From Escherichia coli (GTDB lineage: Bacteria > Pseudomonadota > Gammaproteobacteria > Enterobacterales > Enterobacteriaceae), in the NCBI RefSeq assembly GCF_030013205.1, contig NZ_CP122648.1: 64,000 nt of DNA; one strand, 5' to 3'. The position numbers and the translations under genes are program-made. The notes below the pieces were generated by a model. The model had not been told where the DNA came from and did not search any database. It saw nothing but the letters and a program-made list of their open reading frames with translations. Positions 13,247-18,223 of the stretch are shown here, one piece after another. Each line of letters opens with the position of its first letter. Positions within the stretch are counted from its first letter, which is position 1.

Positions 13247-16200
13247 GTGCGCCTGATTATCACTTTTCTGATGGCCTGGTGCCTCAGTTGGGGGGCGTAC
13301 GCCGCGACGGCCCCCGATAGCAAACAAATCTCACAAGAACTGGAGCAGGCAAAAGCGGCGAAACCCGCGCAACCGGAAGTCGTAGAGGCGCTCCAGTCTG
13401 CCTTAAATGCGCTTGAGGAACGGAAAGGTTCCCTTGAGCGCATCAAGCAATATCAAGAAGTCATTGATAATTATCCGAAACTCTCCGCTACTCTGCGCGC
13501 GCAATTAAACAACATGCGTGACGAGCCGCGCAGCGTGTCACCGGGAATGTCTACCGACGCGCTGAATCAGGAAATTCTCCAGGTCAGTAGCCAGTTGCTG
13601 GATAAAAGCCGTCAGGCCCAGCAAGAGCAGGAACGCGCCCGCGAGATTGCCGATTCGCTGAATCAACTGCCGCAACAGCAAACCGATGCCCGCCGTCAGT
13701 TAAATGAAATCGAGCGCCGCCTGGGGACGCTTACCGGCAATTCCCCGCTCAATCAGGCACAAAATTTCGCGTTGCAGTCTGACTCCGCACGCCTGAAAGC
13801 GCTCGTCGATGAACTGGAACTCGCGCAGCTGTCCGCCAATAACCGCCAGGAATTAGCGCGCTTACGCTCAGAGCTGGCGGAAAAAGAGAGCCAGCAACTG
13901 GATGCGTATTTGCAGGCCTTACGTAATCAGTTGAACAGCCAACGTCAGCTTGAGGCGGAGCGGGCGCTGGAAAGTACCGAATTACTGGCAGAAAACAGTG
14001 CCGATTTGCCGAAAGATATCGTCGCGCAATTCAAAATTAACCGCGAACTATCGGCAGCGCTGAATCAACAGGCGCAGCGGATGGATCTCGTTGCCTCGCA
14101 ACAGCGTCAGGCTGCCAGCCAGACGTTACAGGTCCGGCAGGCGTTGAATACGCTGCGTGAACAGTCGCAATGGCTGGGCTCGTCCAACCTGCTCGGCGAA
14201 GCGTTGCGGGCGCAGGTGGCACGGCTACCGGAAATGCCAAAACCACAACAGCTTGATACCGAAATGGCGCAGTTACGTGTGCAACGGTTACGTTATGAGG
14301 ATCTGCTTAATAAACAGCCGCTGCTACGGCAAATCCATCAGGCCGACGGTCAGCCGCTGACCGCTGAGCAAAACCGTATTCTGGAAGCACAGCTACGCAC
14401 TCAGCGTGAGTTGCTGAACTCATTGTTGCAGGGTGGCGACACGCTACTGCTGGAGCTGACCAAGCTGAAAGTCTCCAACGGGCAACTGGAGGATGCGCTG
14501 AAAGAGGTGAATGAAGCGACGCACCGCTATCTGTTCTGGACCTCTGACGTGCGCCCGATGACCATCGCCTGGCCGCTGGAAATCGCCCAGGATCTGCGTC
14601 GTCTCATTTCGCTGGACACCTTCAGTCAGTTGGGCAAAGCCAGTGTGATGATGCTGACCAGCAAAGAGACAATTTTGCCGCTGTTTGGCGCGTTGATTCT
14701 GGTCGGTTGCAGTATTTACTCGCGCCGCTATTTCACCCGTTTTCTTGAACGTTCGGCGGCGAAAGTCGGCAAAGTGACTCAGGATCACTTCTGGCTGACG
14801 TTACGCACTCTTTTCTGGTCGATTCTCGTCGCGTCACCGCTCCCGGTGCTGTGGATGACGCTGGGTTACGGCTTGCGCGAGGCGTGGCCTTATCCGCTGG
14901 CGGTCGCGATTGGTGATGGCGTAACAGCCACCGTGCCGCTGCTGTGGGTAGTGATGATTTGCGCCACCTTTGCTCGCCCGAACGGCTTGTTTATCGCTCA
15001 TTTTGGCTGGCCGCGCGAACGGGTTTCCCGTGGGATGCGCTACTACCTGATGAGCATCGGGCTTATTGTGCCGCTGATTATGGCGCTGATGATGTTCGAT
15101 AACCTCGACGACCGTGAATTCTCCGGTTCGCTGGGACGGCTTTGCTTTATCCTCATTTGCGGTGCGCTGGCGGTGGTCACTCTCAGTCTGAAAAAGGCCG
15201 GGATCCCGCTGTATCTCAACAAAGAGGGCAGCGGTGACAACATTACCAACCATATGCTGTGGAACATGATGATTGGCGCACCGTTGGTTGCCATTCTGGC
15301 GTCGGCGGTGGGTTATCTGGCAACGGCACAGGCGCTGTTAGCGAGGCTTGAAACCTCGGTTGCCATCTGGTTTTTGCTACTGGTGGTTTATCACGTTATC
15401 CGCCGCTGGATGCTGATCCAGCGCCGCAGGCTGGCGTTTGACCGGGCGAAGCATCGCCGGGCAGAGATGTTAGCGCAACGTGCGCGTGGCGAAGAGGAAG
15501 CGCATCATCACAGTAGCCCGGAAGGGGCAATTGAAGTCGATGAAAGCGAAGTCGATCTCGATGCCATCAGTGCGCAGTCCTTGCGGCTGGTGCGCTCAAT
15601 TTTGATGTTGATCGCCCTGCTTTCGGTCATTGTGCTGTGGTCAGAAATCCATTCCGCTTTCGGCTTCCTCGAAAATATTTCGCTGTGGGATGTCACTTCC
15701 ACGGTACAGGGCGTAGAAAGCCTGGAGCCAATTACCCTCGGTGCGGTGCTGATTGCCATTCTGGTGTTTATCATCACCACGCAGCTGGTGCGCAACCTGC
15801 CCGCGCTGCTGGAACTGGCGATTTTGCAGCACCTGGATTTAACGCCGGGTACGGGCTACGCCATCACCACCATCACCAAATATCTGCTGATGCTGATTGG
15901 CGGGCTGGTCGGCTTCTCAATGATTGGTATTGAGTGGTCGAAATTGCAGTGGCTGGTTGCCGCGCTCGGTGTTGGTCTCGGTTTTGGTTTGCAGGAAATT
16001 TTCGCCAACTTTATCTCTGGCCTGATCATCCTGTTCGAAAAACCGATTCGCATTGGCGATACGGTAACGATCCGCGATCTTACTGGTAGCGTGACGAAAA
16101 TTAACACCCGTGCCACCACCATCAGCGACTGGGACCGTAAAGAGATAATCGTGCCGAACAAGGCATTTATTACCGAGCAGTTTATCAACTGGTCGCTCTC

Positions 16201-16570
16201 TGACTCGGTCACGCGCGTGGTGTTGACGATTCCGGCCCCTGCCGATGCCAACAGTGAAGAAGTGACGGAAATCCTGCTCACCGCAGCGCGTCGCTGCTCG
16301 CTGGTGATCGACAACCCGGCACCGGAAGTCTTCCTGGTGGATCTGCAACAGGGGATTCAGATTTTCGAGCTGCGTATTTACGCCGCTGAGATGGGTCACC
16401 GTATGCCGCTACGCCATGAGATCCACCAGCTAATTCTGGCAGGCTTCCACGCCCACGGTATCGATATGCCATTCCCGCCCTTCCAGATGCGTCTGGAAAG
16501 CCTCAACGGTAAACAAACGGGGAGAACGCTGACGTCTGCGGGCAAAGGTCGTCAGGCGGGAAGTTTGTAA
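13247..16570 (+). CDS. mscM: miniconductance mechanosensitive channel MscM (YjeP)
   Basis: 1107-aa ORF from GTG; signal peptide, long coiled-coil periplasmic region, multiple TM helices, C-terminal MscS-like domain. Confidence 0.92.
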   Translation: MRLIITFLMAWCLSWGAYAATAPDSKQISQELEQAKAAKPAQPEVVEALQSALNALEERKGSLERIKQYQEVIDNYPKLSATLRAQLNNMRDEPRSVSPGMSTDALNQEILQVSSQLLDKSRQAQQEQERAREIADSLNQLPQQQTDARRQLNEIERRLGTLTGNSPLNQAQNFALQSDSARLKALVDELELAQLSANNRQELARLRSELAEKESQQLDAYLQALRNQLNSQRQLEAERALESTELLAENSADLPKDIVAQFKINRELSAALNQQAQRMDLVASQQRQAASQTLQVRQALNTLREQSQWLGSSNLLGEALRAQVARLPEMPKPQQLDTEMAQLRVQRLRYEDLLNKQPLLRQIHQADGQPLTAEQNRILEAQLRTQRELLNSLLQGGDTLLLELTKLKVSNGQLEDALKEVNEATHRYLFWTSDVRPMTIAWPLEIAQDLRRLISLDTFSQLGKASVMMLTSKETILPLFGALILVGCSIYSRRYFTRFLERSAAKVGKVTQDHFWLTLRTLFWSILVASPLPVLWMTLGYGLREAWPYPLAVAIGDGVTATVPLLWVVMICATFARPNGLFIAHFGWPRERVSRGMRYYLMSIGLIVPLIMALMMFDNLDDREFSGSLGRLCFILICGALAVVTLSLKKAGIPLYLNKEGSGDNITNHMLWNMMIGAPLVAILASAVGYLATAQALLARLETSVAIWFLLLVVYHVIRRWMLIQRRRLAFDRAKHRRAEMLAQRARGEEEAHHHSSPEGAIEVDESEVDLDAISAQSLRLVRSILMLIALLSVIVLWSEIHSAFGFLENISLWDVTSTVQGVESLEPITLGAVLIAILVFIITTQLVRNLPALLELAILQHLDLTPGTGYAITTITKYLLMLIGGLVGFSMIGIEWSKLQWLVAALGVGLGFGLQEIFANFISGLIILFEKPIRIGDTVTIRDLTGSVTKINTRATTISDWDRKEIIVPNKAFITEQFINWSLSDSVTRVVLTIPAPADANSEEVTEILLTAARRCSLVIDNPAPEVFLVDLQQGIQIFELRIYAAEMGHRMPLRHEIHQLILAGFHAHGIDMPFPPFQMRLESLNGKQTGRTLTSAGKGRQAGSL

Positions 16571-16720
16571 TGCATGAAGCTGCCAAATGATGTCAACGTG
16601 GCTCATTTAGCAGCTTAACATCATCTTCAGTTATCACCGGCCCTGGAGAGTATCATCCATACGCATTACTTCCTGACAACTCATCGTCGGAGAGACGATG
16701 AGTTGCAGGATTTCATAGGA

Positions 16721-18223
16721 TCAGTCGAGAGCTAACTCAGGTTTATTCGCCATGCGACTGCAATAGTTCTGGTAAATCGCCATCGCTAACAGCGAGAAGA
16801 AGACAGGGCCGCCAATCATCCACAATGTGCTGTCCCAGTCTCCGGCTTCAACCACAGGCTGAATAATGGTGAAGACGTTCGCAAATGTCACCACCAGAAC
16901 GACAACCACCGTCGCAATCATTGCCGACATACGCGTTTTGAAAATCACAAACGGTCTGTCGAGATCCTGACGTGCTTTAAAGAATGGGAAAGCCAGCGCG
17001 AGGAACAAGTAAGGAAGCGTCATAGACACGTTCGCCATCAGCGTCAGCTTGTTAAAGAACGCCGATGCGGTACCGCCACCAAACGAAACCAGCAGGATGA
17101 AGACAGTAACCAGCCCGCACTGCATCCACATGGCGATAGACGGCATCCCCATCGCATTCAGGCGCGTCATCGGTTCCGGCCACAATGCTTTCGGCGTTCC
17201 CTGGATGATGGCTTTCAGCGGTGAATAGCAAAGCGTAAAGAACGCACCGGTATAAGCGAGGAACATCGAAAGTCCGGTAATACGCGCAAACCATACGCCC
17301 AGCGACAATGACGCTTCTGGTGACAAATGCAGTGCGTTACCCAGCGTCACCCCGAGGCTCTTCATCAGCACATAGGTAATATTGCCGAGGTTAACGGAAC
17401 CATTACTTAATACCTGCTGCCAGTTTGTGCTGACGCCCCATAAAAATATTGCCAGCGAATAACCGATTGAAATAACAATAGCGGCAAAAACAATACCTTT
17501 GGCAAAGTTCTTTTCTGGATTTTCTGTTTTATCGACCAGACCACCAACCGCTTCAATTCCGCCATAGGCAAAAATAGCAAATACCACAAACGATAGCATT
17601 GCCAGACCGGACTGATAACCTGGGTTCGGTGATGCAAGGAAATTAATATCCTGCGCGAAATGCCCACCATTTAATAACAAAATAGTAATGCTTACTAACA
17701 GCAATACTAAATTCAGACACATTACTGCAATACCGCCCACCGCAGTAATGCGGGCAATTTTATTAATCCCCTTTGAAGCAACGACGGTGGCCAGAATCAT
17801 CCATGCCACTGCCAGCAGACCAACCACCTGCGTAGGCTCCAGTCCGGCAATACGCCAGTGCTGGGTCATGTCGCTACCATAGAGGAATGTTGAGAACGGT
17901 ACCCAAACTTTCGCGGAGGTACTCACCATCCAGATGATATAAGAGGAAAACCACATAAATGTGCCAATGAAGGCAAAACGTGGTCCGACACTATTATTCA
18001 TCCAGGAATAGATACCGCCTTCTTCTTTGCGATAAGCAGCTCCCATTTCAGCCATCATTAAGGCGAATGGAATAAAGAATAACAATGCAGAAAATATATA
18101 AAAGGGAATCGCACTATAACCCATTAAGTAATAAGCCGATGGGCTATTGGCAAATCCAAATACGGAAGTAAAGATCATCAATATGAGTCCTATCAGACTC
18201 ATCTTTTTTATCGTGTGAGGCAT
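16721..18223 (-). CDS. yjeM: putative amino-acid/polyamine transporter YjeM
   Basis: Polytopic membrane ORF; start placed at MPHTIKKMSLIGLILMIF for a ~500-aa product; exact start uncertain. Confidence 0.85.
   Translation of the reverse strand: MPHTIKKMSLIGLILMIFTSVFGFANSPSAYYLMGYSAIPFYIFSALLFFIPFALMMAEMGAAYRKEEGGIYSWMNNSVGPRFAFIGTFMWFSSYIIWMVSTSAKVWVPFSTFLYGSDMTQHWRIAGLEPTQVVGLLAVAWMILATVVASKGINKIARITAVGGIAVMCLNLVLLLVSITILLLNGGHFAQDINFLASPNPGYQSGLAMLSFVVFAIFAYGGIEAVGGLVDKTENPEKNFAKGIVFAAIVISIGYSLAIFLWGVSTNWQQVLSNGSVNLGNITYVLMKSLGVTLGNALHLSPEASLSLGVWFARITGLSMFLAYTGAFFTLCYSPLKAIIQGTPKALWPEPMTRLNAMGMPSIAMWMQCGLVTVFILLVSFGGGTASAFFNKLTLMANVSMTLPYLFLALAFPFFKARQDLDRPFVIFKTRMSAMIATVVVVLVVTFANVFTIIQPVVEAGDWDSTLWMIGGPVFFSLLAMAIYQNYCSRMANKPELALD

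Follow-up and report, generated by a model that had tools for sequence, protein, structure and literature searches.

The genes mscM and yjeM converge on a gap of only 150 bp in the stretch of Escherichia coli DNA analysed here (64,000 nucleotides, hereafter the window), whereas in K-12 MG1655 the same two genes enclose an interval of 705 bp. The locus raises the question of how the two forms are related: the short gap may derive from the long one by deletion, it may be an older state into which K-12 and its relatives gained genes, or it may be a peculiarity of a single strain. We conclude that the spacer is very probably a scar left by a single old deletion (about 580 bp), which removed yjeN from about codon 18 onwards and the whole of yjeO.

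The mscM-yjeM locus

The flanking genes and the spacer are positioned as follows in the window:

13247..16570, plus strand: mscM (miniconductance mechanosensitive channel), an ORF of 1107 aa with its TAA stop at 16568-16570, named from the RefSeq annotation of strain 7/2.
16571..16720, no strand: mscM-yjeM spacer, 150 bp, taken here as the deletion allele without yjeN and yjeO.
16721..18223, minus strand: yjeM (glutamate/GABA-family transporter, 500 aa), with its TGA stop at 16723-16721 and a tblastn identity of 100% over 500 aa.

A query of 1,150 bp spanning the mscM-yjeM junction matches E. coli strain 7/2 with 100% identity; the RefSeq annotation of that strain names mscM and yjeM with no feature in between. 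The sequence and the ORF list confirm the gap of 150 bp between the two convergent genes (16571-16720) noted in the initial annotation. The latter had also placed yjeN and yjeO in the K-12 interval and supposed that this genome lacks them. MG1655 does carry both genes, co-directional with yjeM, and its gap of 705 bp is not the short one of the window; in K-12 each gene encodes 104 aa and the two overlap by 4 bp. The K-12 interval (b4156-b4159) has the same flanking genes in the same orientations and a stem-loop just 3' of yjeM. It differs from the window by its length, by its intact yjeN and yjeO, by a REP-like hairpin near mscM, by another stem sequence and by another set of last 13 yjeM codons.

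The absence of the two genes was established by tblastn, in agreement with the comparison with K-12. YjeN, YjeO and a protein of 236 aa found next to YjeO homologues in other genera (see below) gave only chance-level matches over the whole 64-kb window. For YjeO these had E values of at least 0.46, and no member of the YjeO family (DUF2645) was found. One of the chance-level matches of YjeN, 14 aa at 16608-16649, coincides with a yjeN remnant described below; an intact yjeN ORF of about 104 aa is absent directly downstream of yjeM.

Distribution of alleles among E. coli genomes

Alleles were surveyed in 5,426 complete RefSeq E. coli genomes, the spacer being counted at a coverage of at least 80%; the frequencies reflect the composition of the database and not natural populations. 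They are distributed as follows:

Short 150-bp spacer (coverage at least 80%): 2,394 of 5,426 genomes (44%).
K-12 interval (coverage at least 80%, E7-type included): 2,152 genomes.
K-12-type yjeN and yjeO: about 1,880 genomes.
E7-type, a second yjeN and yjeO haplotype about 93% identical to K-12: about 270 genomes, a subset of the 2,152.
yjeO half only (e.g. strains 042 and 097H6): about 880 genomes.

Together, the 2,394 short alleles and the 3,030 genomes with any match to the K-12 interval account for 5,424 of the 5,426 genomes, and the short allele is commoner in this set than any other single allele. Its carriers come from many hosts and lineages and include BL21/C43(DE3), ATCC 11303, O157:H7 strains and ATCC 25922. 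All 2,394 copies have the same architecture and are at least 90% identical to the spacer of the window, all but 2 at 95% or more; 1,309 reach at least 99% and about 1,085 lie between 95 and 99%. The same short scar, more diverged, was found in two further Escherichia species representatives (L045 and L091). Uniform architecture, an identity of at least 90% throughout and a junction common to L045 and L091 point to a single origin of this allele.

The initial annotation had described a minor strain-specific indel. The absence of genes relative to K-12 stands, but the spacer is not specific to one strain, as it is found in 2,394 of the 5,426 genomes. At least four E. coli haplotypes exist at the locus, one of them with yjeO only; neither this diversity nor the yjeN remnant, which indicates a deletion rather than an insertion in K-12, had been reported at that stage.

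The yjeO-only allele of strains 042 and 097H6 is likewise a deletion at the mscM-yjeM locus that left a yjeN remnant. It differs from the short allele in that yjeN alone was deleted, with its last ~17 codons kept and yjeO intact on a K-12-type backbone, and it is an event independent of the short allele. A rare fifth allele was observed in E. coli SX48 (NZ_CP142792.1, L118 301-4276), where the interval between mscM and yjeM contains a YjeO-like gene and a hypothetical gene of 237 aa, together with an IS630 pseudogene (its transposase frameshifted), a fragment of yjeO and an IS3 element.

Structure of the 150-bp spacer

Four features were distinguished within the spacer:

16577..16616, no strand: mscM-proximal hairpin, identified by folding and by comparison with E. 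albertii (L006) and E. whittamii (L050).
16608..16660, minus strand: 5'-end remnant of yjeN, with its ATG at 16660-16658, identified by alignment to yjeN and by megablast.
16610..16614, minus strand: probable deletion junction GCTGC, present as a single copy in the window.
16672..16709, minus strand: yjeM-proximal stem-loop, 13 nt downstream of the yjeM stop, identified by folding and covariation.

The yjeN remnant begins with a Shine-Dalgarno-like GGAAG, followed by the ATG and then by ATGGATGATACTCTCCAGGGCCGGTGATAACTGAAGATGA. It comprises about 17 codons, in which a deletion of 1 nt reduces the reading frame to an ORF of 8 codons, MDDTLQGR and a stop (16660-16634). Once the frame is corrected, the remnant reads ..PVITEDDVKLL.. 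where intact YjeN (MDD.SRDPVITEDEIRAL) reads ..PVITEDEIRAL... Megablast independently pairs positions 16621-16720 with E7-type genomes at their yjeM-yjeN junction (82% identity, E=5e-13), yjeN being annotated under the match. The 53 nt of the remnant were compared with four yjeN alleles (K-12, E7, E. albertii and S. arizonae) and gave 35 to 38 matches in alignments of 54-55 columns. This low identity to any extant yjeN implies that the remnant comes from a divergent allele or has undergone a long decay; we consider it non-functional, non-coding debris.

At the other end of the spacer, the sequence following the mscM stop, TAA-TGCATGAAGCTGCC…GGCAGCTT, forms a hairpin with arms of 14 bp (16577-16590 and 16603-16616) and a loop of 12 nt. 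The arms show one mismatch on the plus strand and pair fully, with one G-U, on the minus strand. The base of this hairpin (AAGCTGC/GCAGCTT) and the flanking TGCATG match a hairpin that E. albertii and E. whittamii carry between the stop codons of yjeO and mscM (…GGCAGCTTCATGCA in E. whittamii), while K-12, E7 and 097H6 have a different, REP-like hairpin at this position (GCCGGATG…CATCCGGC). The loop is about 12 nt longer in the window than in E. albertii or E. whittamii, so that changes beyond the deletion are required.

The motif GCTGC lies where the remnant meets this hairpin. In E. albertii one copy lies within yjeN codons 17-19 and another, 584 nt away, within the left arm of the hairpin that follows yjeO (minus-strand indices 121 and 705 of the interval), a coincidence of 5 bp that could be due to chance. 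The junction was read by eye from the minus-strand comparison, since in a global alignment to E. albertii the 37 nt in the middle were dispersed by an artefact. The presence of GCTGC at both breakpoints suggests slippage or illegitimate recombination at a microhomology, five bases being too short to prove the mechanism.

Next to yjeM, a stem of 12 bp (16677-16688 with 16694-16705) closes a loop of 5 nt, the sequence of 16677-16705 being CAACTCATCGTC-TCTCC-GACGATGAGTTG; 4 extra pairs extend the structure to 16672-16709. A stem-loop 3' of yjeM is retained in all the Escherichia haplotypes examined, although the stems differ greatly (CAACTCATCGTC versus GCCCTATCGTC), and in full-length alleles it is found between yjeM and yjeN, without a U-tract. 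Among 8 haplotypes, 96 of 96 cells of the stem alignment pair, compared with 20-57% in slid controls. Both sides have changed in 5 of the 12 pairs, one of which runs through the series U-A, U-G, C-G. Judging from these compensatory substitutions, the stem is under structural selection. Alleles with yjeN have it too, so that it is a feature of yjeM rather than of the scar, probably a 3'-end or processing structure.

The flanking coding sequences vary as well. The last ~13 codons of yjeM (16721-16760, minus strand) come in two versions, equally long but strongly diverged, which end in CSRMANKPELALD before the stop in the window and in CSRVAKNPQWAVE in K-12. The version of the window ("type 2") is common to E7-type genomes and E. 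albertii, as is the stem-loop. Two versions were also found for the mscM 3' end (window 16521-16540, plus strand), and here the window groups with K-12. The combinations of mscM and yjeM ends are shuffled among the four gap alleles. This mixed grouping, K-12-like at the mscM end and E7- or E. albertii-like at the yjeM end, implies recombination among haplotypes, the present alleles being mosaics.

Origin of the short allele

The sequences on the yjeM side and on the mscM side both match the full-length allele, so the ends of the gap correspond to the two ends of that allele. E. albertii NBRC 107761 (L006), whose organization we infer to be the parental one, shares with the window its yjeM 3' end, the CAACTCATCGTC stem-loop and, next to the stop of mscM, the AAGCTGC/GCAGCTT hairpin. 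It differs by a full yjeN (105 aa) and by yjeO; the window is without the ~580 bp that separate the two GCTGC motifs and has the longer hairpin loop. The ancestral order would thus have been of the E. albertii type: yjeM, stem-loop, yjeN, yjeO, AAGCTGC hairpin, mscM. A deletion from one GCTGC copy to the other, about 580 bp in length, would have eliminated yjeN from about codon 18 and all of yjeO. The short allele would then have spread by descent and homologous recombination until it became the commonest among sequenced complete E. coli genomes.

A wider survey was made by scanning a genome collection with a pattern from the mscM C-terminus. Apart from L045 and L091, the other Escherichia species sampled keep at least yjeO at the locus. 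Both genes are present in E. albertii, in a species representative labelled 'E. coli' (L015) and in Escherichia sp. E1V33 (L089), while E. whittamii (L050) has yjeO and a yjeN remnant with a junction that differs from that of the E. coli yjeO-only allele. In S. enterica subsp. arizonae (L052), a frameshifted yjeN flanked by REP-like repeats was found without yjeO. The scan also returned a record labelled Chryseobacterium sp. 18061 (L088, CACSKA010000007.1) with an enterobacterial mscM-yjeM junction and a YjeM 80% identical to that of E. coli; mislabelling or contamination of the assembly is the probable reason.

The reverse history, in which the short gap is ancestral and K-12 and its relatives gained yjeN and yjeO by insertion, finds an argument at the level of the family. 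In most Citrobacter, in S. enterica subsp. diarizonae, and in Enterobacter, Klebsiella and Kluyvera, no gene separates mscM from yjeM, the gap being 40-97 bp, and at that level the empty site is therefore the older state. However, these gaps consist of REP-like or terminator sequence unrelated to the 150 bp of the window, and an empty site would hold neither the yjeN start with some 17 codons nor both hairpins of the E. albertii type. Since the spacer retains yjeN coding sequence as well as the structures that flank the two genes in the full-length allele, the short allele derives from a deletion and does not represent a site before insertion, and we regard the insertion history as improbable. 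What the adjacency deeper in Enterobacteriaceae does imply is that yjeN and yjeO were themselves acquired earlier. A recent deletion or an assembly artefact confined to this genome had in its favour only the guess made at first reading; it is refuted by the 2,394 independent complete genomes that have the spacer (at least 99% identical in 1,309), and we give it practically no weight. We therefore retain a single old deletion as the origin of the short allele.

Independent losses or disruptions of yjeN were observed several times (the E. coli yjeO-only allele, L002 ~2344-2440; L050; L052). The mscM-yjeM site is one at which small genes have been gained and then lost repeatedly and independently, and the allele of the window is one such loss. 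The polymorphism is already implicit in RefSeq annotation and in pan-genome studies.

Potential role of the remaining DNA

The folding energy of the spacer region is -62.5 kcal/mol for each strand (z = -5.6 against shuffled sequences), this strong fold being due to the two hairpins (16577-16616 and 16672-16709). Both have the G+C-rich stem-loop of an intrinsic terminator; no T-run follows either hairpin on either strand, and the terminator scan returned 0 terminator-like sites. No Rfam 15 family matched positions 16400-16900 on either strand at E<=1, and a promoter scan gave only two promoter-like hits, at the minimum accepted score (9 of 12 hexamer positions).

These data were weighed with respect to the idea that the spacer has become functional in itself, whether it encodes a small RNA or a small protein or forms a regulatory structure going beyond 3'-end hairpins. 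A fold far better than that of shuffled sequences on both strands and the compensatory changes in the yjeM-proximal stem count in favour of such a function. That stem, however, is equally present in the alleles that keep yjeN, the ORF of the remnant is frameshifted and limited to 8 codons, and the Rfam, promoter and terminator searches gave the results reported above. An independent function is accordingly very improbable. Most likely, the two hairpins act as stabilizing or terminating 3'-end structures for the convergent yjeM and mscM transcripts.

Products of the deleted genes

K-12 YjeO belongs to DUF2645 (PF10840, 3.8e-41) and appears from its sequence to have three hydrophobic segments and to be an inner-membrane protein with 3 transmembrane segments. 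YjeN (K-12 yjeN, L001 2338-2652) has no direct match in Pfam or NCBIfam, and a search of the PDB sequences with the single sequence or with a profile gave nothing significant. An exhaustive profile search starting from YjeN retrieved 182 distant relatives at E<=0.001. The 10 relatives that were scanned all carry DUF3658, often as the C-terminal domain of proteins of 130-320 aa, and only through such distant relatives is YjeN linked to DUF3658, as a divergent, stand-alone DUF3658-like domain. In one relative DUF3658 is fused to an alpha/beta hydrolase. A comparison of YjeN with the 236-aa protein mentioned above, of which it might have been a truncated form, gave an hhalign probability of 0.2%, i.e. 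no relation. Neither YjeN nor YjeO matched any PADLOC family of anti-phage defence at E<=0.1.

A literature search for DUF2645 or PF10840 found nothing, and the mentions of yjeN and yjeO are incidental: yjeO is induced 2.6-fold in a table of the sigmaE regulon (PMC2731931), it is among the accessory genes linked to growth in milk of mastitis isolates (PMC11390585), and yjeN is mentioned in a 'dark corners' review. Functionally, the deletion deprives its carriers of two small, uncharacterised accessory proteins.

DUF2645 proteins in other genera

A possible lead on YjeO comes from loci outside the window and is not a property of the window itself. At the mscM-yjeM site of Citrobacter, Enterobacter, Trabulsiella and others, a YjeO homologue is encoded directly downstream of a protein of about 236 aa, the two genes abutting or overlapping by a few bases. 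Records of this pair are L119 6001-7582, L121 6001-7745 and L122 5001-6557; it also occurs downstream of mscM in L105, L065, L027 and others. The gene yjeM is missing from several Enterobacter, Citrobacter and Trabulsiella genomes (L017, L065, L072, L086, L096), in which epmA directly follows the pair. In other genera, all 6 of the contexts sampled have the DUF2645 gene as the next one after that of the 236-aa protein. The pair abuts an orphan Hcp gene of the type VI secretion system (T6SS) in 3 of the 6 (Pectobacterium, Xenorhabdus and Serratia), and in Yersinia enterocolitica it is located inside the tail module of a P2-like prophage.

The 236-aa protein has no match in Pfam, NCBIfam or the PDB sequences, whether searched with a single sequence or a profile. 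Its family comprises 190 homologues across Enterobacterales, all annotated 'hypothetical', a few being named SLT-domain proteins by UniRef, and has an invariant Glu (Glu78) in an AEVGG motif. The AlphaFold model built from an alignment of 42 sequences reached a pLDDT of 83.5 and a pTM of 0.84; a model from 7 sequences was unusable (pLDDT 44.7). Compared with the PDB by Foldseek, the usable model gave uniformly lysozyme-like matches (Tse3, MltE, goose-type lysozymes and MltF), which are weak (E 0.1-1, TM ~0.4).

Tse3 is a muramidase effector of the T6SS and Tsi3 a periplasmic protein. The 236-aa protein and its downstream DUF2645 partner resemble effector-immunity pairs of the Tse3/Tsi3 type by their pairing, by the lysozyme-like predicted fold and by the Hcp neighbour in 3 of 6 contexts. 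They differ in that the fold matches are weak and that YjeO is a polytopic membrane protein whereas Tsi3 is periplasmic. K-12 differs in turn from the genera that bear the pair, as the partner of YjeO is there YjeN, which is DUF3658-like, and not a lysozyme-like protein. The comparison suggests that the 236-aa/DUF2645 genes are a putative effector-immunity pair. In a broader and tentative reading, which we find possible but somewhat doubtful, DUF2645 proteins would be the immunity partners of an undescribed family of Hcp-linked, lysozyme-like T6SS effectors of about 236 aa. The yjeO gene of K-12, deleted in the window, would then be an orphan immunity gene, and the mscM-yjeM junction would be a recurrent landing and decay site across Enterobacteriaceae.

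Significance of the short allele

The allele of the window is an ordinary and frequent presence/absence polymorphism of two uncharacterised accessory genes and matters little in itself. It shows that K-12 is not the norm at this locus, the allele with the "missing" genes being the most common single allele in the database. If the effector-immunity reading is true, yjeO would gain a testable function as a T6SS immunity protein, and the short allele, carried by 44% of the complete E. coli genomes, would mark lineages that discarded protection against that effector.
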